A stretch of DNA of 64,000 bases. Origin: Trueperaceae bacterium (GTDB taxonomy: Bacteria; Deinococcota; Deinococci; Deinococcales; Trueperaceae). Positions within the stretch are counted from its first letter, which is position 1. Every line of letters begins with the position of its first letter. The stretch lies in contig JAXHLW010000013.1 in the NCBI GenBank assembly GCA_034521815.1, forward strand, positions 1,312,001-1,376,000, written 5' to 3'. The position numbers were made by a program, and so were the translations under genes. The notes beneath the pieces were generated by a model that ran no database searches, had not been told where the DNA came from, and was given only the letters and a program-made list of their open reading frames with translations. This document shows positions 34,446-52,626 of the stretch, piece by piece.

Positions 34446-36899
34446 ATGTCACCACACGTTCGCGTCCACCGTCCCAGCGGTCTCGCGCTGCTCGCTACCG
34501 CGCTGGTCGTTCTGGCGCTGCTACCGAGCGGCCTGGCCCAGAGCGCCGTTCCGCTGGAGCGTCTCGCGCCCGCCGAAACGGTCTTCGCCCTGGGCCTCAC
34601 GCAAGGCGAGCTGCCCACCGACGATCTCGACGAGGCGTTCGCCGACCTGGACCTCGACGGCGCCAGGGCTGCCCTGGACGCGCTCGGGCCCGTGTTCGAA
34701 GAGCTCGGCGACTCCGCGCCGGGACTGCTGCAGGGGGCCGGTCCGGCGGCGATGTTCCTGCCCGGCCTTCTGGACATGGCCGACGACATGGGTGCGCCCG
34801 GCGATCTCGCCGGATCGCTGGGCGAGGCCTGCCCGGCGGCGGCCGACGTCGTCGCCGGTCTGGACGACGGCCACGTGTGGTCGAACGACCTGCTGCTCGC
34901 CGTCGCCGTCGACCGGTTCGCGCCGATTCCCGGCGTGCTGGCCGCGGCGCGCGTCGCCGACGACGCTCGCGATTCCGCCGACGCGCTTCATGACGCGCTT
35001 CTCGACTGCTTCGGCGGCGAGACGCTCGGCAGCGAGGGCGGCGTGGAGATGCACGTGCTGTTCGACGGCGAAGACCTGCCGCTCGTCGTCGCGCGCAGCG
35101 ATGACCTGTTCCTGGCCGGCTCGCGCCCCGATCTGGTCCGCGGCGCGCTCCGCCGCGCCGCCGGGGCCGAGGAGCCGTCGCTGGCCGACCACCCCGCCGC
35201 CTTCACGGGCGAGCCCGTCTCGGGTGCGCGCGTGCTTTACGACGCGGCCGCTCTGGCCGACGTGATCGCCGGTGCGCTCCCGATCCCACCCGACGAGGAG
35301 GCCATCGTCGCGGCCGTCGACCGCGTCGCCGCGATCTTTCGCACCGTGGGCGCGGGCGGCTCGCGCATCGTGCTGGACGACGCGGGCTGGAGCGCCCTAG
35401 CGACGCTCGTTCCCGACGCGGACGGTGGCGACGCCGAGCTGTACGACCTGCTGACCTGTGCCACCTGCACGTCGGGCGAGCCGATGTGGGCGCCCGAAGG
35501 CGCCGTGTCGGCAAGCGGATCGAGCCTGCGACTGACCGCGTGGATGGACTGGCTGGACGGCGTCGTCGGCGACGTCAGCGCGGCGATGGGAGAGCCGACC
35601 ACGGTCCGTGCCGCCCTTCGCGACGAGCTCGGTCTCGACCTCGACGCGCTGCTCCTCTCCTGGCTGGGCGACGAGATCCATACGGTGCGCCTCGATGCGT
35701 TCTCGCCCGACCTCGCCGACCTGCTGTACCAGCCCGCGTCGGCGACGATCGTTCCGGTGACCTCCGCGGCCGAGGCCGAAGCGGGGCTGGACGCGCTGTT
35801 CGAGGCGGTCTCGGCGTTGCCGTCGCTGCCGTCCGACATGGACGACTTCGCCACGCTCGGGACCATGCTCTCGGTCCGCGACGCCGAGATCGCAGGTGTC
35901 GCCGTCCGTCGCGTGCAGATCGGCCCGACGACGGACCTCGCCATCGGCGTCGTCGACGACCACCTGGTGATCGCCACGCCGTCCACCGCGTTCGCGGACG
36001 TCCTCGCGGTCGTCCAGGGCTCGGTCGGCGACGATCGCGACAGCGAAGGCTGGTCGGCGGTCGTGGACGCCTCGCCCGCCGGCCGTATCGGCTGGTCGTA
36101 CGGCAACGGCGGCGCCGATCTCGCCGGGGTGGCGGAGACGCTACGCCTGGTCGCGCAGCCGATCGCCGCGAGCATCTCGATCGGCCTGTCCGCAGCGCTC
36201 GAGGAGGCGCGCAGCGAAGAGGCGACCACCGAGGCCGACTTCGGCTCGTTCGACGACGAGCAGCCGCTCGTCGACCTGAACGGGATCACCGGCTCGGGCG
36301 GTATCGGCGACGCCCTCCCGGTCGACGCGCGGCCACTGGCGCCCAACACTCCGGTCGACGCGGAGCTGGGACCCGACGCCACCCTGGCCGAGTTCGGCGA
36401 AACCGTCGACGTCTGGGGGCCGATGGTGGTTCCTTCCGGCACGGAGGCGTCGATCGTGATGACGTCCGAGCCGCTGGACACCTACCTGTACCTGTACGAC
36501 GCCGAGACCGGCACGATCCTGGCGGAGAACGACGACGCCCCCTGGACCGATCGCTCGGAGATCCGCTTCCTCTCGGACGGCCGCGCACTGCTGGTGGGCG
36601 CCACGATCTGGGGCAGCAGCGGTCAGGGCGAGTACCGGATCGAGCTGATCGTCGACGAGGAGACCGTCGACGCGGAAGAGGACACGGACGGCGCCGAAGG
36701 GGCCGACGACGCCGCCAGCGACGACGCGGTCGAGGAGCCGCTCGCCGAGGTGCCGCCCTTCGAGGACCTGCTGACGCTGGTCGAGATCGGTCCCGAAGCG
36801 CTCGCGATCGTCGCCGACCGGCTCGGGCTGTCGTGGACGGTGACCACCAGCGACGACGGCACGATCCGGACCGAGCATCGTCAGGCGTTCGACTGGTGA
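34446..36899 (+). CDS. Large acidic secreted protein (DUF3352-like body with a PPC-like domain)
   Basis: AAGGA RBS, signal peptide (GLA-Q), PPC-like LDTYLYLYD..G.ILAENDD...GEYRIEL. Confidence 0.7.
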   Translation: MSPHVRVHRPSGLALLATALVVLALLPSGLAQSAVPLERLAPAETVFALGLTQGELPTDDLDEAFADLDLDGARAALDALGPVFEELGDSAPGLLQGAGPAAMFLPGLLDMADDMGAPGDLAGSLGEACPAAADVVAGLDDGHVWSNDLLLAVAVDRFAPIPGVLAAARVADDARDSADALHDALLDCFGGETLGSEGGVEMHVLFDGEDLPLVVARSDDLFLAGSRPDLVRGALRRAAGAEEPSLADHPAAFTGEPVSGARVLYDAAALADVIAGALPIPPDEEAIVAAVDRVAAIFRTVGAGGSRIVLDDAGWSALATLVPDADGGDAELYDLLTCATCTSGEPMWAPEGAVSASGSSLRLTAWMDWLDGVVGDVSAAMGEPTTVRAALRDELGLDLDALLLSWLGDEIHTVRLDAFSPDLADLLYQPASATIVPVTSAAEAEAGLDALFEAVSALPSLPSDMDDFATLGTMLSVRDAEIAGVAVRRVQIGPTTDLAIGVVDDHLVIATPSTAFADVLAVVQGSVGDDRDSEGWSAVVDASPAGRIGWSYGNGGADLAGVAETLRLVAQPIAASISIGLSAALEEARSEEATTEADFGSFDDEQPLVDLNGITGSGGIGDALPVDARPLAPNTPVDAELGPDATLAEFGETVDVWGPMVVPSGTEASIVMTSEPLDTYLYLYDAETGTILAENDDAPWTDRSEIRFLSDGRALLVGATIWGSSGQGEYRIELIVDEETVDAEEDTDGAEGADDAASDDAVEEPLAEVPPFEDLLTLVEIGPEALAIVADRLGLSWTVTTSDDGTIRTEHRQAFDW

Positions 36900-38770: not shown

Positions 38771-39916
38771 CTACGCCGTGGGCTGCGGCTCGTCCACGCC
38801 CTGCGCGAGGGGCGCGAGGACGGCGTCGACGTCGGGGACCGCGATGATCTCGTAGAGGCTGCCCCGCTGCTTGGGGGTGTAGCCCGCCTCGACGATCTGC
38901 CGAACCATCTCGCGCTCGGGCGTGGCCCGGTGCTTGGCGCCCGCCTGCGACACGACGTTCTCCTCCAGCATGGTGCTTCCGAAGTCGTTGCAGCCGAAGT
39001 GCAGCGCCGTCTGCGCGACCTTGTAGCCCATCGTCGGCCAGGACGCTTGATGGTTCACGACGTTGTCCAGCACCAGGCGGGCGGTCGCGACGTTGCGAAG
39101 GTACTCGTGCGCGCCGGCGCCCGGCGCCTTGCCGTGGATGCGGACGCCCTCGGTCTGGAGCGTCCACGAGATGAACGCCGAGAATCCGTTTCCGTAGCGG
39201 GCCAGCGCGCGGTCCTGCTGGTCGCGGATCCGCATCAGGCTCTCGACGCGCTGGGCGTCGCTCTCGCCGAAGCCGATCACCATCGTCGCGGTCGAGTACA
39301 GACCCAGCGACTGGGCCTCGTCCATCACGGCGATCCACTCGCCTGCCGAGATGCGCGCAGGCGAGATGTGCTTGGCGTGCCGGACGTCGTCGACCAGCAT
39401 CTCGCCGCCGCCGCCGGGGAGTCCGTCCAGCCCGGCAGCGGCCAGCTCACGCAGCACCTCGAGGGTGGTCATCCCGGTGTGCTTCGCCATGCCCTTGATC
39501 TCTTCGGGGCTGAACGACTCGACCCGGATCGTCGGGTGGCGCTCCTTGAGGTGCCGCATCAGATCCAGGTACCACGAGAACGGCAGCGTGGGGTGCACGC
39601 CGCCCTGCATCAGGACGCGGCTTCCGCCGACCGCTTCGAGCTCGCGAAGCTTCTCGGAGATCTGCTCGTAGCTCAGCACGTACGCGTCGTCCTGGCGGCG
39701 GGTGCGGTAGAAGCCGCAGAAGGCGCAGCCGATCGTGCAGACGTTCGAATAGTTCACGTTCCGGTCGATCAGGTAGGTGACGGTGTCCGGGTCGGTCCGC
39801 TGGCGCCGAACGGCGTCGGCGGCGCCGGCCAGCGCGAAGAGCGGGGCCCGTTGCAGCTCCACGGCTTGGTCGGCCGTGAGGCGTGCACCGGAGGCGGCGT
39901 GAGCCAGCAGATTCAT
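38771..39916 (-). CDS. mqnC: Cyclic dehypoxanthine futalosine synthase (radical SAM)
   Basis: TYLIDRNVNYSNVCTIGCAFC, QGGVHP, PGGGGE, NDFGSTMLEENVV. Confidence 0.92.
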   Translation of the reverse strand: MNLLAHAASGARLTADQAVELQRAPLFALAGAADAVRRQRTDPDTVTYLIDRNVNYSNVCTIGCAFCGFYRTRRQDDAYVLSYEQISEKLRELEAVGGSRVLMQGGVHPTLPFSWYLDLMRHLKERHPTIRVESFSPEEIKGMAKHTGMTTLEVLRELAAAGLDGLPGGGGEMLVDDVRHAKHISPARISAGEWIAVMDEAQSLGLYSTATMVIGFGESDAQRVESLMRIRDQQDRALARYGNGFSAFISWTLQTEGVRIHGKAPGAGAHEYLRNVATARLVLDNVVNHQASWPTMGYKVAQTALHFGCNDFGSTMLEENVVSQAGAKHRATPEREMVRQIVEAGYTPKQRGSLYEIIAVPDVDAVLAPLAQGVDEPQPTA

Positions 39917-39932
39917 GCCGGAGAGGATAGCA

Positions 39933-40088
39933 CCGGGCCACCTTCGCTTCCGTGGCCCGGGGGACCGGATCTTCACGAGCGCGACCTGGGGATGTGTACC
40001 CCGCGTGCCGTGGCGACCGGAAGACGCGGAGCGAACGCGTCCATCGCGTCTTCGAGATTGTGTACCCGATTCCTCGCCGCGATAGACT
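39933..40088. promoter_or_regulatory. Divergent promoter region with two inverted repeats and a direct repeat
   Basis: CCGGGCCAC/GTGGCCCGG (39933-39960), GAAGACGCG/CGCGTCTTC (40020-40053), TGTGTACCC x2 (39993, 40059), TAGACT -10 at 40083. Confidence 0.5.
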
Positions 40089-40094
40089 GGGGAG

Positions 40095-43000
40095 GTGCCC
40101 GCGACTCCGCGATCTGGTCCGCGATCCACCGTCAGTCCTTGGCGCGCCGTGTTCGAAACGGTGCGTGACGCCGTCGGTACCCGGCGCGACGACCAGGGCG
40201 TGCTCGGCAGCATCAACTGGCTCCGCCGCCAGATGGAGGCGCGCGGAGCGAACCCGAACGTCGTGCGGAACATCATCTACCGCGACAAGGGGAAGCTGTC
40301 GGACAAACGCGTGCTGTTCGAGATCCTGCGCGAGCTGTGGGCGACCGCCAGCGACCAGCCGCTGAACGCGCCCGAGATCGAGGTGCTGCTCTCGCCGCAC
40401 GCCAGCGCCGAGCAGGAGGTGCTGCAGCTTCTCGGCCGGGAGAAGCGGCGCGCGTTCCGCTCGTTCGTCCGTGCCGTGCGCGACGGCGAGCAGCCCAAGC
40501 TTCTCGTCACCGGCCGTCCCGGCTCGGGCAAGACGATGCTCACCGACTACATCCAGCAAGCGCTCCAGGTTCCGCCCGCCGCTCGGGCACGGGTGGTGCG
40601 CGCCGAGTTCGGGGGCGCGGGGCTCGGCACCACGCTGGCGCGCCTCGGCGAGCGTCTGGGGGTGAGGGGCGACGCGATGGAGGCGCGCCTGGCCAAGATC
40701 GGCACGGGCGGCGCCTACGCCGTCCAGGCGGACGCCCAGGCCGACGTCGCGCGTGCCATCCTCGATGCGCTTCGTGCCGACGACGTCCCGGTCGTGCTTC
40801 TCCTCCACGTCTCGCAGGCGCTTTCGCAGCAGGAGAGCCTGGGCACCGTTCCGCTACGCCTGAACACGCCCGAGGTCCCACGCGTCGGCGCGCCCGAGTG
40901 GCTCTGGTCCACCTTGATCGACCCGCTCTCGACCCTCCCGTCCACCAGCGTCCTCGTCTCGATGACGGATCTTCCTGCCAGGGCGCTTCAGCGTCCCGGC
41001 GGCTTCGGCGTCCCCGTCAAGCTGACGCCGCCCACCGCGGGCGAGGCACGCCGCTTCGTCAAGGCGCGATTGCCGCACCTGCCTGCCGGCCAGCAGGAAG
41101 AGATCGTCCAACGCGCCGGTCGATCGTTCGAGGAGCTCAGGACCCTCACCCTCCTCGCCGAGATCCGTGCGCCGCTTCCCGAGGAGGACGCCTCGGCGGC
41201 TTCCATCGCCCGGCTGAGCGACCTCGTGACCGGCGGCGGCGACGCCCGCCTCCGTGACTTCCTCGCCGCCCTGGCGGTCATCTCGCTGCCCGAGTTCCCC
41301 ACCTTCCGCCTCGCCGACCTCACCGCGCTGCGGCCCGAGGAGCAAGGCGAGCCCAGCGAGCTCGAGCTCGCGTTCGTCGACGTCCTGCCGGGCGACGACG
41401 CTGACGAGGTTCGCTGCTTCTCGCGCCGACTGGTCCGCGCGCTGCGCGAGCGTCTGGCGCACGTCGATCCCGAACGGCACCGCCGGCTCCACGCGGCCGC
41501 CGCGGTGCGGCTTCGGGACGAGGCGGAGCGAGCGCCGGGAACGGAAACCGCCGCCAGGCACGTCCATCACCTCTACGAAGCACGTGACTGGGACGCCCTG
41601 ATCGGCTGGATGCGACAGCACGGCGTGCCGCAGTCGCTGGCTCGGCGCGCCTGGCGCACGGCGCGCGAGGAGCTGGCCCCGACCGATCCGAACGCGTTCG
41701 AGCGCCTCGCCCAGGAAGTCGCCGCGCACTACGTCAAGCTGGGCTCGTACCAGCACGGCGACGCGTTGGACGCCTTCGGCGTGCTGACCGCCTCCGCGGA
41801 CGAGCAGCGCAGGGCCTGGGCGGTCCTCAAGCAGGCGGAAGGCTCGGTGCTGCGCGGCCACTACGAATCCGCGCGCCAGGCGCTGGGGTCGTGGCCCGGC
41901 AGCGACGATCCCCTCATGTCCGCCGAGGCGGCGCTGGTGCGCGCCAGCATCGCCCGCTGGAAGGGCGAGCTCGAGACCGCCGCCCGGATCGTCGAGACCG
42001 AGGCGCGGCCGCGCGTCGCGACCCTCGAGGGCCGCGACGCGGCGCAACGACTGGGGCGCGCGAAGGTCGCGGTCTGGGCCGGCTTGATCCACAAGGATCG
42101 GGGCGATCTGGAAGCGGCGGCCCGCGAGTTCGCCAGCGTCGAGTCCGACGACGACCTGGTGCGGGCGCGCCTGGCGTTCCAGTCCGGCGACGTACGCATG
42201 GCGCTCGGGCGACTCGCGGACGCCTCGGGGAGCTTCGACGACGCCGTGCGCCTCGCGCAGCGAAGCGGCGCGCTCGGAAGCGAACGGACGCGCTACCTGG
42301 CTCGCCGCGCCACGCTGGCACGACGTCTCGGCGATCTTCATGCAGCGGAGGCGGACTTCGTCGCCGCGGACGCCATCCTCGACGCCGAGGCGGGCGACGA
42401 GGTCGAGCGAGGCTTCTGGAGCGCTCGCGTGGACGACGAGCGGGCGCTGCTGCTGCTGGCGCAGGGCCGTCACGACCAGGCGATCTCGCTGCTCGCCTCG
42501 ACCGCCGCACGCTACCGGGCCTACGGCGACGCGCACGGCGTGGACGCCGCCTACCGGGTCGATCGAACGTCGCTGCGACTGGGCGTGGCCTACGCCGCGC
42601 GCGGCCTCGGCGTGGCCTGGGTGCCGCCGTTCCCGCAGCTGGACGACGGCCCTGCCAGGTGCCGAGACCTCCGGCAGGCCCGGACGCTGCTGCACGCGGT
42701 CGTGCAGCGGGTGCCCGACGGAGAGGAGGCGACGCAGGCGGCCGACGCTCTGGCACGCCATGCGCTGCTGGTCACGTCGCTGCTGGAGCCGACGGCGGAC
42801 GCCCTGGCGCTGGTTCACCGGGCCGACCGGTTCTCGCGCTTCCCCTATTTGCGTGCCGAGGCGTCCGCCTACCGGGCCGCGGCCTTGCTTCGCGCCGGCC
42901 TGGCAGGTGCCGCGGGCGAGGCGGTGGACGACGCGTGGGCCGCGCTGCGCGCCGTCGGCGACCGTCGCGGCGATCCGGGGCTCCGCGCGTGGCTGCGTGC

Positions 43001-43289
43001 TCTGGCGCTCCGGACCCAAGTGGCGCACGGCGAGCCCGCTCCTCTGGCCACGACGCTAGGGCATCTGCTCGACGACGATCTCCCCGACACGATGCGCGCG
43101 GGCGCGCTGCGGGCGCTGGGGGAGGCGCTCGAGACGCACGACCGGTCCGACTGGCTGGTCCATCCGCGCTTCCCGGCGCCGCTGCGCGGCGCGTCGGTCG
43201 ACGGGCTGCTCCGGCCCGGCGACCTGCTGGTCGACCGCTGGCGAGCGCACGCCCAGGACGGCGCTCTCCCGGCCGAGCTGCCGGCATGA
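40095..43289 (+). CDS. HTH-like + P-loop NTPase + TPR-like repeat protein (STAND-like regulator)
   Basis: 1064 aa; Walker A GRPGSGKT; Ala/Arg-rich helical repeats such as GDLEAAAREF, GRLADASGSF, GDLHAAEADF, GRHDQAISLL. Confidence 0.8.
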   Translation: MPATPRSGPRSTVSPWRAVFETVRDAVGTRRDDQGVLGSINWLRRQMEARGANPNVVRNIIYRDKGKLSDKRVLFEILRELWATASDQPLNAPEIEVLLSPHASAEQEVLQLLGREKRRAFRSFVRAVRDGEQPKLLVTGRPGSGKTMLTDYIQQALQVPPAARARVVRAEFGGAGLGTTLARLGERLGVRGDAMEARLAKIGTGGAYAVQADAQADVARAILDALRADDVPVVLLLHVSQALSQQESLGTVPLRLNTPEVPRVGAPEWLWSTLIDPLSTLPSTSVLVSMTDLPARALQRPGGFGVPVKLTPPTAGEARRFVKARLPHLPAGQQEEIVQRAGRSFEELRTLTLLAEIRAPLPEEDASAASIARLSDLVTGGGDARLRDFLAALAVISLPEFPTFRLADLTALRPEEQGEPSELELAFVDVLPGDDADEVRCFSRRLVRALRERLAHVDPERHRRLHAAAAVRLRDEAERAPGTETAARHVHHLYEARDWDALIGWMRQHGVPQSLARRAWRTAREELAPTDPNAFERLAQEVAAHYVKLGSYQHGDALDAFGVLTASADEQRRAWAVLKQAEGSVLRGHYESARQALGSWPGSDDPLMSAEAALVRASIARWKGELETAARIVETEARPRVATLEGRDAAQRLGRAKVAVWAGLIHKDRGDLEAAAREFASVESDDDLVRARLAFQSGDVRMALGRLADASGSFDDAVRLAQRSGALGSERTRYLARRATLARRLGDLHAAEADFVAADAILDAEAGDEVERGFWSARVDDERALLLLAQGRHDQAISLLASTAARYRAYGDAHGVDAAYRVDRTSLRLGVAYAARGLGVAWVPPFPQLDDGPARCRDLRQARTLLHAVVQRVPDGEEATQAADALARHALLVTSLLEPTADALALVHRADRFSRFPYLRAEASAYRAAALLRAGLAGAAGEAVDDAWAALRAVGDRRGDPGLRAWLRALALRTQVAHGEPAPLATTLGHLLDDDLPDTMRAGALRALGEALETHDRSDWLVHPRFPAPLRGASVDGLLRPGDLLVDRWRAHAQDGALPAELPA

Positions 43290-43873
43290 CCCAGGGAGCG
43301 CATGTCCGCGAGGTGACCGCGGACACGCCTCCTCTCCCCCTTCACGACGCGCTGGACGTGTTCCGGCCGCCCGCCCAGCAACACGCGGCGCTGATCGACA
43401 TCGCGTCCGATCCCCACGGCCTCGTCGTCGTCGCCGAGGACGAGGCCCACACCGTCGGCTACCTGACCTTCCATCCACCCAGCGAGATCGAGACCTGGGG
43501 CGACGACCGCAGCGGCCGGCTGATCGAGCTCGGCGCCATCGAGGTCGCTCCCGACGTCCGGGGCGAGCGTCTGGCCGAACGGATGCTGGTGACGGCGTTC
43601 GACGGCGGGCGCTTCGACGGAACCGTCGTGTTCGCCACGCTGTACGCCTGGCACTACGACGTGGACCGGTCCGGCCTGGGATCGTTCGCCTACCGGCGCA
43701 GGCTGGAGCACCTGTACGGGAAGGTCGGCCTCGAGTCGATGCCCACCAGCGACCCCGAAGTGCGCGCCGATCCCGCCAACGCCCTCGTCGCGCGCATCGG
43801 ACCCCACGCGCCCGACGCCGTCGTGCGCGAGTTCAACAGGCTGCGCACCCAGCCGCACCGACTGGGCCTATGA
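43286..43873 (+). CDS. acuA: AcuA-like protein lysine acetyltransferase (GNAT)
   Basis: FRPPAQQHAALIDIA, VGYLTF, LIELGAIEVAP..RG, YAWHYD, DPANALVARIG resemble Bacillus AcuA; ATGA overlap with the upstream gene. Confidence 0.88.
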   Translation: MTQGAHVREVTADTPPLPLHDALDVFRPPAQQHAALIDIASDPHGLVVVAEDEAHTVGYLTFHPPSEIETWGDDRSGRLIELGAIEVAPDVRGERLAERMLVTAFDGGRFDGTVVFATLYAWHYDVDRSGLGSFAYRRRLEHLYGKVGLESMPTSDPEVRADPANALVARIGPHAPDAVVREFNRLRTQPHRLGL

Positions 43874-43910
43874 GCGGTTCGCGGTATCGTGGGGCGACCC
43901 GAGGAGGACC

Positions 43911-44561
43911 ATGCTCGTACGAGACATCATGACGCGACCCGTGGTCGCCATCGGCCCCGACGAGCCGATCGGCGACGTCACCGCCCTGATGGCGCAGCGA
44001 CGCCTTCGGCACTTCCCCGTCGTGGACGAGGGTCGCCTGGTCGGCATCGTCTCCGACCGCGACCTGCGCACCGTCGGTAGCCGGCATCCCAAGGCCCGGC
44101 CCGACGTCGGCGTGACCGACCCGGTGCGGGCGTTGATGACCACGTCGGTCTGGACGGCCCACCCGTTGGACCCGATCGACGAGGCAGCCAGCGTTCTCCG
44201 CTATCACGCCATCGGCGCCATGCCGGTCATGGACGAAGGCGACATGGTCGGCATCGTCACGGCCAGCGACTTCCTCGACGCCCTGGTCGAGATGACCGGC
44301 GTCGGCCGAGCATCGACCCGGCTGGAGGTCGAGCTCCCGAACCGGCCCGGCGCCCTGGCCGGACTGTTGGACCGCATCGCCGCGCGCGGAGCGAACGTCG
44401 CGAGCGTCCTGACGACCCGTAGCGAGCCCGACGTCGTCGCGTTCGTGCTGCGCGTCGGCACGATGGACGGCCGTGGGCTGGCCCGCTCGCTTCGCGAGGC
44501 GGGCTACGAGATCGGCTGGCCGCTCGAGCGCGAGCCGTCGTCCGGTCCCGAGCCGACGTGA
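43911..44561 (+). CDS. acuB: AcuB-like CBS-pair + ACT protein
   Basis: GAGGAGG RBS; MLVRDIMT, RHFPVVD, GIVSDRDL, ELPNRPGALA. Confidence 0.88.
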   Translation: MLVRDIMTRPVVAIGPDEPIGDVTALMAQRRLRHFPVVDEGRLVGIVSDRDLRTVGSRHPKARPDVGVTDPVRALMTTSVWTAHPLDPIDEAASVLRYHAIGAMPVMDEGDMVGIVTASDFLDALVEMTGVGRASTRLEVELPNRPGALAGLLDRIAARGANVASVLTTRSEPDVVAFVLRVGTMDGRGLARSLREAGYEIGWPLEREPSSGPEPT

Positions 44562-45787
44562 GCGACGACGCCGCCGCTGCGGAGCCCAATCTCGACGCTG
44601 CGTTCGTCTACGCCCCCCACTTGGCCAGCTGGACGCTGTCGGCCGACCACCCCTTCAAACCGGTCCGGCTGGCCTTGGTGAAGGACCTGCTCGAAACCGC
44701 CGGCCTCCTGCATCCGCACGAGATCGTCGCGCCCGCAAGGCTCCGGGCGGGCGAGCTCTCTCGCGTCCACGACGCGGAGTACCTCGAGATGGTGGCGCGG
44801 GTCTCGCGGGGGGAACGCCCCGAGGAGGCGTTCAGGTTCGGGCTCGGGACGGCCGACACGCCCGTGGTGGACGGCTTGCACGAGAGCGTCCAAGCCGTCT
44901 GCGCCGCCACCGTCACCGCGATGCAGCTGGTGATCGACGGTCGCACCAAGCGCGCCGCGACCTTCTCGGGCGGGCTGCACCACGCCATGCCGGACCGGGC
45001 GTCGGGCTTCTGCGTGTACGACGACCTCGCCCTGGCGATCCTGCGCGCCACCGATCACGGGCTCCGCGTCGCCTACCTGGACCTCGACGCGCACCACGGT
45101 GACGGCGTCCAGCACGTGTTCTACGACCGTGCCGACGTGCTCACCATCAGCGTGCACGAGTCCGGGCGCTACCTATTCCCAGGGACCGGGCACAGCTACG
45201 AGCTGGGCACCGGCGCGGGACGAGGGCTGTCGGTGAACCTCCCGCTGGAGCCGTTCACGGAGGACGACAGCTACCTCGAGGCGTTCGACGAAGTCGTTCC
45301 GCGGGCGCTTCGCGCCTTCGCGCCCGATCTGCTGCTGGTGCAGGCCGGCGCCGATCCGCACCGCGACGATCCGCTGGCCGACCTGTCGCTCACGCTGAGC
45401 GGCATGCGCGACGTCTACCGCCGCGTCGCGGCGCTGGCGGACGAGCTCACCGGCGGCCGCTGGATCGTCACGGGCGGCGGCGGCTACGAGACGTTCTCGG
45501 TGGCGCCGCGCGCCTGGGCGCAGGCCTGGTCGGCGATGACCGGTCGCGACGTTCCCGACCGCCTGCCGGACGCCTGGCGCGAGCGCTGGCGCGACGCCGC
45601 AGGAGGACCGCTTCCAGGGCGCGCCCTCGACGGTCCCGACGACTACCCGCCGCAACCGAGACGCCTGCAGGTGCAGGGGCACAACACCGCCGTCGCCAAG
45701 CGTCTTTCGGCCGTTCTGGAGCCGATCTGGCGGGACCACGAGGCGATGCGGACGGGCGCGACCACGCGCCAGGAAGGAACGTCATGA
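44558..45787 (+). CDS. acuC: AcuC Zn-dependent deacetylase (HDAC family)
   Basis: HPFKPVR, GGLHHA, ASGFC, DLDAHHGDGVQ, FPGTG, GAD.H.DDPL, GGGGY. Confidence 0.93.
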   Translation: MSDDAAAAEPNLDAAFVYAPHLASWTLSADHPFKPVRLALVKDLLETAGLLHPHEIVAPARLRAGELSRVHDAEYLEMVARVSRGERPEEAFRFGLGTADTPVVDGLHESVQAVCAATVTAMQLVIDGRTKRAATFSGGLHHAMPDRASGFCVYDDLALAILRATDHGLRVAYLDLDAHHGDGVQHVFYDRADVLTISVHESGRYLFPGTGHSYELGTGAGRGLSVNLPLEPFTEDDSYLEAFDEVVPRALRAFAPDLLLVQAGADPHRDDPLADLSLTLSGMRDVYRRVAALADELTGGRWIVTGGGGYETFSVAPRAWAQAWSAMTGRDVPDRLPDAWRERWRDAAGGPLPGRALDGPDDYPPQPRRLQVQGHNTAVAKRLSAVLEPIWRDHEAMRTGATTRQEGTS

Positions 45788-46671
45788 AACTCGGATTCGT
45801 CGGACTCGGAACGATGGGCGCCCCGATGGCGCGACGGCTTCTGGACGCGGGCCACGAGGTCACGGTCCACAACCGCACGCGCGCACGCGAGGAGCCGCTG
45901 GCCGACGCCGGCGCCGCACGCGCCGCGACCCCCAGGGAGGCGGCCGAGGGGAACGATCTGGTCATTACGATCGTCGGCGACTCGCCGGACGTCCGCGAGG
46001 TGGTGCTCGGTCCCGACGGCGTCGCGGACGGACTGGCCGAGGGAGCGATCGTGATCGACATGTCCACCATCTCGCCCGACGTCACCCGCGAGATCGCCGA
46101 GGCGTTGCGCCTGCGGGGGATCCACATGCTGGACGCTCCCTGCTCCGGTGGCAGCGAGGGGGCGGCCAACGGAACGCTCTCGATCATGATCGGCGGCGAC
46201 GAGGACGTCCTGGAGCGGGCCAGGCCCGCGCTCTCCGTGCTGGGCACGACGTTGACGCGCGTGGGCGAAGCGGGCGCCGGCCAGCTGTGCAAGGCGGTGA
46301 ACCAGGTGGTGATCGCCGGCACGTACGCCGCCGTCGCCGAGGGCCTGGCGCTCGCGATGCGCTCCGGCATCGACACCGAGGCGGCGCTGCAGGCGCTGTC
46401 CGGAGGTGCCGCGGGATCGTGGGGCTTGACGAACCGGGGACCCAACATGCTGCGGGGCGACTACCCGCTCGGGTTCCGGACGCGCCTCCACCGAAAGGAC
46501 CTCGGCATCGCTCTGGACGCGGCCCGCGAGCGCGGCGTGCCGTTGCCGCTGACCGCATGGGTCGAGCAGGCCGAGACCGTCCTGATCCGGCGTGGCTTCG
46601 GCGACGAGGACGTCAGCAACATCGCGCGCCTGGCGCGGGAAGCGGCCGGCGTCGATCCGGGCGAGGCATGA
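45784..46671 (+). CDS. beta-Hydroxyacid dehydrogenase (GarR/MmsB family)
   Basis: GFVGLGTMG, DMSTISP, DAPCSGG, GAGQLCKAVNQ, KDL. Confidence 0.9.
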   Translation: MKLGFVGLGTMGAPMARRLLDAGHEVTVHNRTRAREEPLADAGAARAATPREAAEGNDLVITIVGDSPDVREVVLGPDGVADGLAEGAIVIDMSTISPDVTREIAEALRLRGIHMLDAPCSGGSEGAANGTLSIMIGGDEDVLERARPALSVLGTTLTRVGEAGAGQLCKAVNQVVIAGTYAAVAEGLALAMRSGIDTEAALQALSGGAAGSWGLTNRGPNMLRGDYPLGFRTRLHRKDLGIALDAARERGVPLPLTAWVEQAETVLIRRGFGDEDVSNIARLAREAAGVDPGEA

Positions 46672-46708
46672 GCGACGCCCACGTCGCTCGCCGCATCGGC
46701 CAGGACGC

Positions 46709-47446
46709 CTACGAACCTGGGGCGGGCGCGCGCGCGAACGTCCATACGCGCGACTCGCTGGCGTCCGCGGGACCTGCGTCCGGGTAGACGACCACCTCGA
46801 CCGGCGCGAACCCGGCGATCCCCAACAGGCGTCGCAGATCGTCCGGGTCGTACGGTCGTTCCTGATGCACCTCGGTGAACGCGCCTTCGGGTCCGTCGCA
46901 GTACGCTTCGACGGTGGCCAGCTCGGTGGCGGGATCGTAGCGGTGAAGCCAGCGGTAGTACACCTCTCCGGCCCACCCTTCCGCCCGGTCGTCCTCCCAC
47001 AGCCGTTGCAGACCGACGCGCGTGTTCGCGTCGAACACGAACCAGCCGCCCGGCTCCAGGTGACGCCGGACCTGGCGCGCCATCGCCACGAACGCCTCGT
47101 CGCTGAGCAGGTTGTTCAGCGCGTCGAAGACCGAATACACCAGCGCGTAACGGTCCGGCAGCTCGAAGTCGCGCACGTCCCCGAGGTGGAACGCGGCGTG
47201 CGGCAGCTTGGCGCGCGCCACCTCGAGCATCTCCGGCGACGCGTCGAGGCCGTCGACGTCGAATCCCCGCTCGACCGCCGGTGCGGTGGCGTTCCCGGTG
47301 CCACAGCCGAGATCCAGCAGGCGACCGCCCGCGAACCCGCGAAGCGTCGCCTGCCGCAGGACGAACGCGACCCAGTCGTCGTACTCGACGTCCGCCATGA
47401 TGGCGTCGTAGACCTCGGCGAGACGGGTGAACGGTTGCGCATCCAC
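46709..47446 (-). CDS. Class I SAM-dependent methyltransferase
   Basis: YDAIMADVEY, LDLGCGTG, GLDASPEML, FDALN. Confidence 0.9.
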   Translation of the reverse strand: MDAQPFTRLAEVYDAIMADVEYDDWVAFVLRQATLRGFAGGRLLDLGCGTGNATAPAVERGFDVDGLDASPEMLEVARAKLPHAAFHLGDVRDFELPDRYALVYSVFDALNNLLSDEAFVAMARQVRRHLEPGGWFVFDANTRVGLQRLWEDDRAEGWAGEVYYRWLHRYDPATELATVEAYCDGPEGAFTEVHQERPYDPDDLRRLLGIAGFAPVEVVVYPDAGPADASESRVWTFARAPAPGS

Positions 47447-49562: not shown

Positions 49563-50396
49563 CTAGGGCGCCGGGTCCGCTCGATCGACACCCGATCCGT
49601 CCGCCCCCTCCGCCGGCTCGTAGCGCCGGTAGTGGTAGGCGTGGTGCACCGTGAATCCCAAGCGCCGATACAGGCGCAGCGCCGCGTCGTTGCGGGCGTC
49701 CACCTGCAGGTAGGCGGCGTGCGCGCCGGCCGCACGCGCACGGCTCAGGGCCGCGGCGACGAGCGCCCGCCCATGGCCCCGGCCGCGGGCGTCAGGAACG
49801 GTGGCCAGAGAGAACAGGCCGACGCAGCGCCGCTTCGGGTCGAGCACGGCGAGGCCGGCCGCGACGGCTCGACCGTCGTCGTCGCGAATCGCGAGATGCC
49901 AAGGAACGAGTCCGGCCTCGGTCAGCGCCGCGGCCCGCATCTCGGACCACGCCGCCGTGCCCGGCACGACGACGTCCTGGACCTCCTGGTAGCCGGCGTC
50001 GGGGCGCTGGGCGACGCGCACGTCGCCGGCCCCGGCGGCAGCCGGTTTCTCCGGCAGCCGTTCGAGGCCGTGATGAAGGACCGACGCCCCCGGCTCTCTG
50101 TGCCATCCTCGGCGGCCCAGCTCGTCGTCCAGCCGAGGGGGCTTGGCAGCGACGGTGAGCTGGACCCGCGGGACGACGCCGCGCGACCGGTAGAACGCCT
50201 GGACCTCGTTCAGCTTGTCGGCCAGCGGCCGCTGGCCACGCGCTTCGGGCAGAACGCTGTTGCCCCGGCGCGTGACGCCACGGTTGTAGCGCAGGCGCCA
50301 GCCGTCGGAGAGGACCTCCTCGGCCGGCGCGAGCGCGTCCGCTGCCGCCGCTTCGAGCTCGGCGATCCGGCGCAGCGTGGGGTCCAGCAGGTCCAT
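49563..50396 (-). CDS. GNAT N-acetyltransferase
   Basis: GVTRRGNSV, ARGRGHG, YLQV, NDAALRLY. Confidence 0.88.
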   Translation of the reverse strand: MDLLDPTLRRIAELEAAAADALAPAEEVLSDGWRLRYNRGVTRRGNSVLPEARGQRPLADKLNEVQAFYRSRGVVPRVQLTVAAKPPRLDDELGRRGWHREPGASVLHHGLERLPEKPAAAGAGDVRVAQRPDAGYQEVQDVVVPGTAAWSEMRAAALTEAGLVPWHLAIRDDDGRAVAAGLAVLDPKRRCVGLFSLATVPDARGRGHGRALVAAALSRARAAGAHAAYLQVDARNDAALRLYRRLGFTVHHAYHYRRYEPAEGADGSGVDRADPAP

Positions 50397-50427
50397 GCCG
50401 GCCACCGGGCCCGGGTCCTGCTCGGCG

Positions 50428-50862
50428 TCAGCCGTCGCCGATGCCGACCAGGGTGAGCTGGAAGGTCAGCGGCTGGCCGGCCAGGGGGTGGTTCGCGTCC
50501 AGCGTGACCTGCTCCTCGTCCAGCTTGGCGACCGTCACCGGAACGGCGCGGCCGTCGGGCTGCTGGAGCTGCAACGGCGTGCCGACGTCGACCTCGAGCT
50601 CGTCGGGAAGCTGCTCGCGCGGGACGTCGAGCAGAAGGTCCTCGCGGCGCGCGCCGTAGGCGTCGTCCACGTCGATGCGGGCCTCCTTGCTCTCGCCGAC
50701 CTCCATGCCGATCGCGGCCTCTTCGAAGCCGGAGATGACCTGGCCTTCGCCGAGGGTGAAGGCCAGCGGCTCGCGACCCTCGCTGCTGTCGAAGACGGTG
50801 CCGTCGTCGAGCTTGCCTGTGTAGTGGATCTGGACCGTATCGCCCTGCTTGGCGGTGGGCAT
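50428..50862 (-). CDS. FKBP-type peptidyl-prolyl isomerase (SlyD/FkpB-like)
   Basis: GGAGG RBS; HYTGKLDDGTVFDSS, DANHPLAG; the ORF track fuses it to ggt only because of the ggt frameshift. Confidence 0.93.
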   Translation of the reverse strand: MPTAKQGDTVQIHYTGKLDDGTVFDSSEGREPLAFTLGEGQVISGFEEAAIGMEVGESKEARIDVDDAYGARREDLLLDVPREQLPDELEVDVGTPLQLQQPDGRAVPVTVAKLDEEQVTLDANHPLAGQPLTFQLTLVGIGDG

Positions 50863-51011
50863 GGGGAACCTCCCCGGGGGCTCGCGCCCCGTCGTCGGAT
50901 GCGGATGCGCGGGCCGGACCGTTCGTTCGGCCCCGTCGCACACGGAGGGTGCCACGGACGGACGGCGCAGCATGTCGCGCGGCCTGCGGAGCGCCCCGGC
51001 CCAGCGGCTGC

Positions 51012-52599
51012 TCAGAACCCGAGCGCCAGGCCGTCCTTGCGCGGGTCGCTTCCCGCCACGTACCCCCCGCCGGGGAGCCGCTCGATCAGCTGCGCGCCGC
51101 CGAACGCGAAGCTCGCCTCGGGCGCGGTCGCCGTGACGTCGTGCCCCATGGCCGTCAGCGCTGCGACGACGTCCGTGTCCGACGCCCGCCTCGACCGCCA
51201 CGGTGCGCCCCTCGACGACGCGCCAGCGCGGCGCGTCGGCGGCGGCCTGCGGGTTCTGCCCCCAAGCGACGGTCCTCAGCACCATCTGCACGTGCCCCTG
51301 GGGCTGCATCGGGCCGCCCATCACCCCGAAGCTGCTGCGCGGCCGGCCCCCTTCCGTCAGGAACGCCGGAATGATGGTGTGGAACGGCCGTTTCGACGGA
51401 CCGACCCGGTTGGGGTGGCCCTCCTCCAGCGTGAAGCCCGCGCCGCGGTTCTGGAGCGAGATGCCGGTGCCGGGCACCACCACGCCCGAGCCGAAGCCGT
51501 AGTAGTTCGATTGGATGAACGACACCATCCGGCCTTCCGCGTCGGCGGCGGTCAGGTACACGGTGCCGCCCCGCTTGGGAACGCCGTGCGTCGGCGCGCC
51601 CGCGCGATTCGGGTCGATCGTGGCGGCGCGCGCTGCGAGGTAGCCGTCGTCCAGAAGCTCGTCCGGCGTGACGTCCAGGTGGCCCGGGTCGGCGACGTAG
51701 CGGTACGCGTCGGCGAACGCGAGCTTCATCGCCTCGATCTGGAGGTGGAGCGCATGGACCGAGTCCGGCTGGGCGTCCGCGACGTCTGTGTGACGCAGGA
51801 TGCCCAGCGCGATCAGGGCGGCGAGGCCCTGACCGTTCGGCGGGATCTCGTGCAGCTCGGTGCCGCCGAACGCGGTCGAGATCGTCCCGACCCAGTCCGG
51901 CCGGTGCGCGTCCAGATCCGACGCGTCCAGCAGGCCCCCGCCGGCCCGAACGTGCCCCGCGATCCGCTCGGCCAGCGCACCCCGGTAGAACGCCTCGCCG
52001 TTCGTCTCCGCGATCGTTGCCAGCGTGTCGGCCTGATCGTGGAACCGCCAGATCTCGCCGGCACGGGGCGCCCGCCCGCCGGGCAGGAACGCCTGGGCGA
52101 AGTCGGGGCGCGAGCCGAACGCCTTCTCCGAGAGCGACCAGGCGCGCGCGGTGATCGGCGAGACGGGGAATCCGTCGCGTGCGTACCCGATGGCCGGCGC
52201 GAACAGGTCGCCGAAGGGGAGCGAGCCGAAGCGGCGGTGCAGCTCGACCCACGACGACACCGCGCCCGGCGTGGTGACCGAGTCCTCGCCACGGAGCGGA
52301 ACGGCGTCCATGCCGTCGAACCGCTCCGGCGTCAGCGTGGCGGGGCTTCGCCCCGAGGCGTTCAGGCCGTGCAGTCGCTCGCCGTCCCAGAGGATCGCGA
52401 ACGCGTCGCTGCCGATGCCGTTGCTGGTCGGCTCGACCACGGTGAGCGCGATCGCCGTGGCCAGGGCGGCGTCGACGGCGTTGCCGCCCTTGGCCAGCAT
52501 GCGCAGACCGGCGGACGCGGCCAGCGGCTGGCTGGTGGCGACGACGTTGCGCGCCAGGACCGGCATGCGCTGCGAGGGGTAGGGGGTGGCGGGATCCAT
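51012..52599 (-). CDS. ggt: gamma-Glutamyltransferase family protein with an apparent +1 frameshift near 51180
   Basis: GGNAVDAA, PPNGQG, GGTVY, QNRG, GVMGG; C-terminus FGGAQ..GSDPRKDG in the alternate frame ends at TGA 51012. Confidence 0.88.
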
Positions 52600-52626
52600 G
52601 GGTCTCCTTCGGGGCGGGGCGAGAGG

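Follow-up and report, generated by a model that had tools for sequence, protein, structure and literature searches.

A probable STAND-type transcription regulator heads an acuABC operon in a Trueperaceae bacterium and belongs to a Deinococcota family linked elsewhere to the glyoxylate shunt

A cluster of five co-oriented genes occupies positions 40095-46671 (+ strand) of the window, by which we mean the whole 64,000-nucleotide stretch analyzed here (Trueperaceae bacterium, GCA_034521815.1, contig JAXHLW010000013.1). The first of them, BIG-A (40095..43289; 1064 amino acids), is followed by homologs of acuA, acuB and acuC and by a gene for a dehydrogenase of the 3-hydroxyisobutyrate dehydrogenase (HIBADH) family. 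It seems probable (we would put the chance at roughly 0.55) that BIG-A is a STAND-type regulator of transcription, similar to MalT and GutR, that senses a signal, binds specific DNA sequences and controls its own operon. The BIG proteins would then be a new family within a known kind, the STAND transcription regulators, and as judged from a sequence tree BIG-A is the Trueperaceae-specific paralog of a phylum-wide protein, here called BIG-B. The window is 72% GC DNA of Trueperaceae-like character, whose nearest protein and locus matches are Trueperaceae/Deinococcales metagenome-assembled genomes; it lies on contig C13 of a 2.63 Mb host genome that is 83.5% complete.

Database searches with the BIG-A sequence say little. 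Pfam returns only AAA_16, below threshold (29.2 bits, cut-off 32.6), and no helix-turn-helix (HTH) or tetratricopeptide repeat (TPR) family; phmmer against the PDB sequences gives chance-level rows only, and NCBIfam assigns no family to BIG-A, AcuA or AcuC. The AlphaFold model of residues 1-500, built from 52 sequences (pLDDT 92.5), has MalT as its top Foldseek match (8bob_C, 2.8e-8), and further matches are CED-4, Apaf-1, plant NLR resistosomes (NRC4/ZAR1/Sr35), ORC/Cdc6, Avs3 and the archaeal STAND-TPR protein 6mfv. For those STAND matches, which have the nucleotide-binding domain-helical domain-winged helix (NOD) fold, the Foldseek probability is 1.00, while domain orientation keeps the TM-scores down at about 0.3. 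By its predicted fold BIG-A is a STAND NTPase (module at residues ~115-480), in agreement with the first-pass annotation of this DNA, which had labeled it a STAND-like HTH-NTPase-TPR protein. The remaining parts of that label fare unevenly: the P-loop is plainly present as a Walker A motif, GRPGSGKT at about residues 140-147, in which G145 and K146 are invariant in the 52 sequences, TPRs in the C-terminal region are suggested by homologs and the family profile, and the HTH comes from weak fold matches. The profile finds P-loop ATPases at positions 119-190 and TPR proteins, including consensus-TPR, at 604-806, where the best match has 6.4e-6. Of 22 family members, 20 show TPR Pfam families at E ≤ 0.01 around residues 530-840, mostly below threshold. 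The HTH-like N-terminal part (residues 15-111) is modeled as a separate domain (pLDDT 84), all-helical with one short hairpin; R58, N59 and Y62 of its helix 54-63, and also G66, are invariant in the 52 sequences, which come from three families.

GutR of Bacillus subtilis has the domain order DNA-binding domain, NOD, TPR. BIG-A, with a putative DNA-binding domain and a putative TPR region, would resemble it and AfsR of Streptomyces in this order, and it resembles Escherichia coli MalT, its best fold match, in the logic of a P-loop NOD, a helical arm and a putative repeat sensor. MalT, however, carries a C-terminal LuxR-type HTH, whereas no LuxR/GerE Pfam match is present at E ≤ 0.01 in BIG-A or 21 relatives and the putative DNA-binding domain of BIG-A is N-terminal; BIG-A also differs from MalT in the absence of the Walker B acid, and no sequence similarity between them is detected beyond the P-loop region. 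In contrast to GutR and AfsR, BIG-A has no Pfam match to NB-ARC, BTAD, Trans_reg_C or an OmpR-type domain, hence no SARP/AfsR signature, and its N-terminal domain is lambda repressor-like, if anything. The abstract of PMC10936776 describes AfsR as a SARP-NOD-TPR protein; passages of the paper describe GutR as an inducer- and ATP-activated STAND regulator and have MalT, GutR and AfsR all activated by inducer plus ATP. Bacillota clusters of NB-ARC+TPR proteins of ~830-840 aa are among the protein-atlas look-alikes of BIG-A and are taken as a lead only.

The 178 nt spacer between BIG-A and the divergent radical-SAM CofH/MqnC-like gene upstream of it (likely ATG at 39916) contains two + strand copies of the heptamer TGTGTAC, a distal one at 39993..39999 and a proximal one at 40059..40065; these are the only two in the 64 kb window, and there are 15 in the 2.63 Mb genome. 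The proximal box occupies the -35 position of the BIG-A promoter and is a candidate operator or activator site, and a -10-like hexamer, TAGACT, recognized by its conservation, follows at 40083..40088 (+), 6 nt before the GTG start. The BIG-A promoter was compared in 48 Trueperaceae species, those of 81 loci (the window and 80 fetched ones) that have the divergent radical-SAM gene within 400 nt. Exact TGTGTAC is present on its coding strand in 44, and in 47 if one position is relaxed; the order in the 44 is box, 16-18 nt, TAnnnT, 6-9 nt, ATG/GTG, and a second upstream copy is found in 5 of the 48. The full composite pattern occurs once in the host genome, at BIG-A. With a box at -35 and a -10 element only 6-9 nt from the start codon, the mRNA would be leaderless or nearly so, and since the box stands in place of a -35 element the promoter may depend on an activator, which would mean positive autoregulation together with activation of the acu and dehydrogenase genes. 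A scan of 39700-47000 for consensus sigma-70 promoters found no site, a result that is uninformative at 72% GC. The GTG at 40095 is taken as the BIG-A start because the conserved W16 is only 15 codons downstream and the frame opens at 40086. The sequence GGGAG abuts this codon, which raised GTG 40200 and ATG 40233 as alternatives; both are rejected because the W16...R24 segment lies upstream of them and the ATG/GTG codons of relatives stand at the same distance from the -10.

MalT-dependent promoters carry several short asymmetric boxes, one of them overlapping the -35 region, and the candidate targets here resemble them. Two other genomic copies of the heptamer lie in reverse orientation (GTACACA) between a -10-like hexamer and the ribosome-binding site of two glyceraldehyde-3-phosphate dehydrogenase (gap) genes, on contig C13 near 1044974 (L194:4475) and on contig C7 near 237 (L195), one gap being followed by pgk; a box in that position would suggest repression there. 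In the window's genus the gap box is present in 4/4 BIG-A-bearing genomes and in 0/5 BIG-A-lacking ones, and it was not seen in 3 further BIG-lacking genomes. At the acu locus the same five BIG-A-lacking congeners retain the corresponding intergenic region, and in 5 of 5 it has no box. The idea that the heptamer is just a -35 hexamer is rejected because it lies reversed between -10 and ribosome-binding site at gap and is multicopy at the aceB/aceA promoters described below. The related heptamer GGTGTAC has 391 copies in the host genome, 98 of them outside crude gene calls that cover 72% of it, which is no enrichment, so TGTGTAC alone is informative in this genome. Two near-identical stretches of ~75 nt that contain TGTGTAC, at 313723 and 519375 of contig C13, have no called genes and are a repeated element. 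A literature search on the motif strings returned primers and unrelated sequences only.

BIG-A is coupled to acuABC by position, not by phyletic pattern, and the two are not obligate partners. The ATG of acuA overlaps the BIG-A stop codon in an ATGA at 43286-43289 (direct reading); this overlap is limited to the closest relatives, the other displayed junctions being some 10-40 nt. Among the relatives whose junction is displayed, ~0-40 nt separate the stop codon of BIG-A from the probable start of acuA and contain no conserved box, and so the earlier view that BIG-A heads the operon holds. Of 80 Trueperaceae species loci, 62 were informative for the same-strand genes directly 3' of BIG-A. In 44 of them one or more acu genes follow (acuABC plus dehydrogenase in 27, acuABC only in 7, acuBC plus dehydrogenase in 6 and other acu combinations in 4), in 11 the dehydrogenase without acu genes, in 2 a convergent malate synthase gene and in 5 none of these. 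No acu gene lies within 6 kb of a BIG homolog in 20 Thermaceae and 20 Deinococcaceae loci.

Presence and absence were scored in 301 Deinococcota genomes (including the unpublished genome G252), in which f1 is the window's family, Trueperaceae, f2 is taken as Deinococcaceae and f3 as Thermaceae. In the 102 Trueperaceae genomes BIG and AcuA occur together in 46, BIG alone in 41, AcuA alone in 9 and neither in 6. AcuA is found in 14/14 genomes of f4 and 9/10 of f5, families nearly devoid of BIG, and with this query in 0/62 of f3. All five BIG-A-lacking genomes of the window's genus keep the arrangement radical-SAM<>acuA-acuB-acuC-dehydrogenase at the same locus. These counts speak against the earlier proposal that BIG-A is a coupled component of the acetylation switch; BIG-A heads the acu operon yet is outside the switch itself. 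In BIG-lacking congeners (L211:2607-2760, L213:2607-2744) a -10-like hexamer precedes a short open reading frame (ORF), ~30-40 codons long, which terminates in a GTGA at the start of acuA and looks like a remnant of deleted BIG-A; such a scar would indicate loss rather than gain, which makes it doubtful that the regulator was "added here," as had been suggested.

Could the adjacency of BIG-A and acuABC then be inherited gene order devoid of functional meaning? The lack of phyletic association between BIG-A and AcuA, the clean deletability of either module and the larger block, syntenic across Trueperaceae, in which both reside (817-aa gene, amidohydrolase, radical-SAM, BIG-A, acuABC, dehydrogenase, methyltransferase, zinc alcohol dehydrogenase, mreB) would be expected in that case, but BIG-A also lies next to acuC or acuBC with none of the other block genes within 7 kb (L082, L085, L086, L089, L093, L094 and L096), and the tight junctions, in relatives where they are displayed, leave no room for a separate acuA promoter. 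We consider this explanation decidedly unlikely, and even if it were correct acuABC here would be transcribed from the BIG-A promoter. Of the three roles that had been offered for the large protein, that of transcription factor fits best, given the -35 box in 44 of 48 species and the joint loss of box and gene; those of an acetylation substrate of AcuA/AcuC or a scaffold for AcuA/B/C find no support and are very improbable. The ATGA translational coupling of BIG-A and acuA in this genome would suit such a physical partnership, as would the fact that TPR regions are often protein-binding platforms, but that overlap is found only in the closest relatives, AcuABC occurs without BIG in 9 Trueperaceae, 13/14 f4 and 9/10 f5 genomes, and BIG-A occurs without AcuA in 41.

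Among the genomes searched the BIG family is confined to Deinococcota, with a homolog in 87/102 Trueperaceae, 98/112 Deinococcaceae, 62/62 Thermaceae, 1/14 f4 and 0/10 f5 genomes. A tree of 37 sequences contains a BIG-A clade made up of Trueperaceae only (SH-aLRT 100), and all remaining sequences are BIG-B. Isocitrate lyase (ICL) is found in 7/102, 98/112, 62/62, 1/14 and 0/10 genomes of the same five families, and genome by genome outside Trueperaceae BIG and ICL are both present in 160, BIG only in 1, ICL only in 1 and neither in 36. The two discordant genomes are fragmented (BIG only in G239, 640 contigs; ICL only in G097, 440 contigs), and the match is close to exact, even though kin are not independent. 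The 7 ICL-positive Trueperaceae genomes all carry BIG, and all 7 gave two BIG matches; in 4 of their 7 fetched ICL loci a second BIG gene is beside or within ~5 kb of malate synthase-ICL, and its product has 50% identity with the Thermus type, against ~30% with the protein of the window. BIG-B is similar to BIG-A over the full length (~30-39% identity); it shares the invariant residues of the N-terminal domain, has a Walker B degenerate in the same way and is associated with boxes that have a GTGTAC core, but it forms a separate clade, is linked to aceA/aceB/pckA and not to acuABC, and its box starts with G instead of T.

Repeat-sensor STAND NTPases are common in defense, and Avs3 is among the fold matches, so one might ask whether BIG-A is an anti-phage (Avs/NLR-like) sensor that sits beside acuABC by chance. 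This is scarcely credible: PADLOC finds 0 families across all five operon proteins, BIG-A has no effector domain, it is a single match in a stable position among housekeeping genes in a family where 87 of 102 genomes have it, and its promoter is conserved with a specific box.

In 13 of 20 Thermaceae loci ICL is immediately upstream of BIG-B on the same strand, the order there being ICL, BIG-B, sufC, sufB, sufD and a Rieske gene. As this gene order fits TTHA1836 and TTHA1838-1841 (PMC7662524, Table 5), BIG-B of Thermus thermophilus HB8 is probably TTHA1837, on gene order only. ICL and/or malate synthase lie within 6 kb of BIG-B in 10 of 20 Deinococcaceae loci, in three arrangements, and phosphoenolpyruvate carboxykinase (PEPCK) is adjacent in 1. 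Two to four copies of GGTGTAC, GGTGTA or TACACC, in direct and inverted orientation, lie upstream of malate synthase/ICL/PEPCK genes in Deinococcaceae, of ICL in Thermaceae and of malate synthase in ICL-positive Trueperaceae. Relative to the rest of the fetched loci, GGTGTAC is enriched 54-fold in 11 Deinococcaceae promoters (22 in 2420 nt against 48 in 283,560 nt; 11/11 carry it) and GGTGTA 12-fold in 13 Thermaceae promoters (12/13 carry it), enrichment and Poisson figures that are overstated because the counts were made on the very sequences in which the boxes had been spotted by eye, and because the genomes are related. GTGTAC-core boxes are also present in 12/12 aceA/aceB promoters fetched separately from BIG, whose gene, in the genomes where it is listed, is on a different contig or at a distance of more than 100 kb. 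At one BIG-B locus (L229, genome G211) two GTACACA boxes of the BIG-A type, 13 nt apart, lie upstream of BIG-B, which hints at cross-regulation between the paralogs. The Thermus CRP-family factor TTHB099 was considered as the box binder and is not supported; in passages of the published account its consensus is TGT(A/g)N8(T/c)ACA, isocitrate lyase is de-repressed in a TTHB099 mutant with no TTHB099 site upstream, and no site lies upstream of the affected operons, including TTHA1836. Searches of the literature, supplements aside, turned up no glyoxylate-shunt or STAND regulator of Thermus or Deinococcus, no regulator named for these promoters and no mention of TTHA1837.

Several observations weigh against BIG-A as a DNA-binding regulator of its operon. 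The N-terminal domain is the first: lambda cI N-terminal domains are in the top Foldseek rows only weakly (E ≥ 0.57, probability ≤ 0.44), and VIA gives Z 4.0-5.0, scores that small helical domains often reach according to the tool; HTH domains of the lambda cI / HipB / ClgR / HigA / C-protein / PlcR / ComR type fill about half of the top 50 VIA rows, other matches at that level being the HNF-1A POU domain, the MuB N-terminal domain and HigA2, and no HTH Pfam family (including HTH_3 and HTH_31) is found in BIG-A or 21 relatives. The fold model, moreover, covers only residues 1-500 of the 1064. Throughout the family the Walker B strand lacks its acidic residue, the motif being hhhhH for clade A and hhhhR for the types of Thermus and Deinococcus; the strand reads VVLLLHVS in clade A and LLLRAE or LLIRVG in the other clades, with no D/E at its end in any row inspected, as read from a MAFFT alignment that is not anchored on a solved structure; with this acid missing, the nucleotide switch may work unlike that of MalT. 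In Walker A, Thermus and Meiothermus BIG-B proteins read GKG (one GKS) for GK[ST]/GKT (loci L031-L050). As to the boxes, the gap box was not seen in 2/2 BIG-A-bearing genomes of other genera, the joint loss of box and BIG-A in the genus may be a single event, no box is present at the acsA promoter of the host genome, and the enrichments are inflated as stated above. The phyletic link to ICL belongs to BIG-B, not to BIG-A, and ICL (PF00463) and malate synthase (PF01274) were not found in the host genome, which is incomplete to the extent given above.

Alternatively, a different factor might bind the box and have BIG-A only among the members of its regulon. Some other DNA-binding protein or a promoter-recognition element would then own the GTGTAC boxes, and BIG-A and BIG-B would be co-regulated and act through protein contacts, for example as ATP-dependent adaptors or sensors. 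The weak HTH assignment and the degenerate Walker B leave room for this, and boxes upstream of a gene mark it as regulated, not as a regulator. Against it, the boxes are missing from promoters of two kinds, not linked to each other, in precisely those congeners that have lost BIG-A, the invariant surface-helix residues of the N-terminal domain parallel an invariant box core across the phylum, BIG-B and ICL occur together in 160 of 162 genomes that carry either, and the boxes are repeated in direct and inverted orientation like those of MalT-dependent promoters. On balance this alternative is unlikely.

If BIG-A is the regulator, its TPR/NOD part would, by analogy with MalT, GutR and AfsR, sense a metabolite, and sensing would change its oligomeric state in the manner of a nucleotide-dependent switch. 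The N-terminal helical domain would recognize and occupy TGTGTAC boxes, one of which would replace the -35 element of BIG-A's own leaderless promoter. BIG-A would then control the whole BIG-A-acuA-acuB-acuC-dehydrogenase unit and, in this genus, the two gap loci too, and synthesis of the acetyl-CoA-synthetase acetylation switch would thereby come under a metabolite signal. BIG-B would most likely control glyoxylate-shunt genes through the related GGTGTA(C)/TACACC boxes; it is tempting to speculate that T or G at the first box letter would let both paralogs coexist in one cell. Three metatranscriptome libraries from two studies contain contigs of related strains (90-99% identity) that lie on BIG-A and span its junction with acuA (43051-43456) as well as that of acuB with acuC; they are a weak hint of co-transcription, as contigs cannot establish one continuous transcript and DNA may be present in such libraries. 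RNA depth over 39800-40033 is nil in library X15 and ~1-2 in X19 and X20, and contig cover is patchy over parts of acuA and acuC, neither of which can be read as absence.

All five ORFs of the cluster have high GC at third and low GC at second codon positions, a pattern typical of real genes at 72% GC, and the first-pass reading of five co-oriented genes with ATGA/GTGA overlaps and one 37 nt gap agrees with the sequence, as do its AcuA-, AcuB- and AcuC-like identities with the PDB and Pfam matches. The acuA homolog (43286..43873, +) encodes a GNAT lysine acetyltransferase homolog with an Acetyltransf_1 match (Pfam) and full-length AcuA similarity to the PDB chains 2q04_A (1.1e-36) and 9g7f_C (3.3e-36, over residues 17-188) by phmmer. 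After a 37 nt spacing (43874-43910) that contains GAGGAGG, acuB (43911..44561, +) encodes a nucleotide-sensing adaptor homolog of the architecture CBS-CBS-ACT (two CBS domains at 5.5e-31, ACT and TTHA0829-like ACT, by Pfam), similar to the solved AcuB proteins Geobacillus 9s4w_A (3.9e-37), 9qs7_A (6.7e-26) and TTHA0829 5awe_A (4e-26) by phmmer. It overlaps acuC (44558..45787, +) in a GTGA at 44558-44561. The acuC product is a homolog of Zn-dependent, histone deacetylase (HDAC)-like deacetylases, with a Hist_deacetyl match that spans profile positions 1-297 of 298 (6.1e-84) and the class I/II chains HDAC8/HDAC2/HDAC6 at ~1e-53 to 1e-62. An ATGA at 45784-45787 joins it to the gene for the HIBADH-family NAD(P) dehydrogenase (45784..46671, +), which has NAD_binding_2 and NAD_binding_11 domains (Pfam) and for which tartronate semialdehyde reductase is the nearest NCBIfam model, below its cut-off (287.7 bits against 340.75). 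An 8 bp inverted repeat, GAGCGACG / CGTCGCTC with a 4 nt loop (46670..46689, direct reading), overlaps the last stop codon and is a possible terminator, lacking a T tract, ahead of the convergent methyltransferase gene that is the downstream neighbor; the terminator scan did not call it.

The gene order acuA, acuB, acuC is that of the acuABC-acsA loci of Bacillus and Geobacillus. There acetylation by AcuA inactivates AcsA, deacetylation by AcuC undoes the effect, and AcuB is the sensor of energy charge or diadenosine tetraphosphate (Ap4A), as given in the abstracts of PMC13121692, PMC13039410, PMC11255334 and PMC11910552 and in passages of PMC13039410. The Bacillus background stated in the first-pass annotation agrees with the four abstracts. 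In Bacillus acsA is divergently adjacent to the acu genes, whereas here it is not adjacent and the divergent gene is the radical-SAM gene; the sole full AcsA match over the cut-off in the genome is on contig C1, not C13. Unlike in Bacillus, the acu operon here includes genes for a probable STAND regulator and a HIBADH-family protein. Term searches of two 2026 papers on AcuB find neither Deinococcota nor gene neighborhoods nor tetratricopeptide proteins, and in them Thermus appears only through the TTHA0829 structure.

Three other ORFs of the window may be mentioned. At 34446-36899 (+) an 817-aa ORF with gene-like codon bias has no Pfam match, and tblastn finds its homolog in the same relative position in many, not all, Trueperaceae loci. 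Another acetyltransferase gene, for a GNAT protein of Rv0428c-like type, lies at 49563-50405 (-), 3 kb past the acu operon. A 732-aa ORF at 50428-52626 (-) combines a gamma-glutamyltranspeptidase domain (residues 42-483) and a C-terminal FKBP-type prolyl isomerase domain (592-661), and represents an unusual fusion or else a pair of genes taken for a single one.

A wider proposal, which we hold tentatively and at somewhat less than even odds, is that the BIG proteins are undescribed HTH-STAND-TPR master regulators of C2/gluconeogenic carbon flow in Deinococcota that bind repeated GTGTAC-core boxes in MalT style. BIG-B would be the missing activator of aceB/aceA and pckA, BIG-A, with its T-for-G box, would wire acuABC, a glyoxylate-related dehydrogenase and glyceraldehyde-3-phosphate dehydrogenase to the same kind of metabolite signal, and the family-wide loss of the Walker B acid would leave a switch that binds nucleotide and does not hydrolyze it. 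If this is true, a regulator and an operator of the glyoxylate shunt would be named for Thermus thermophilus and Deinococcus radiodurans, both much-used models, and a fourth architecture, one with a naturally degenerate Walker B, would stand beside those of MalT, GutR and AfsR. The AcsA acetylation switch, treated as purely post-translational in Bacilli, could then also sit under a metabolite-sensing transcriptional input.

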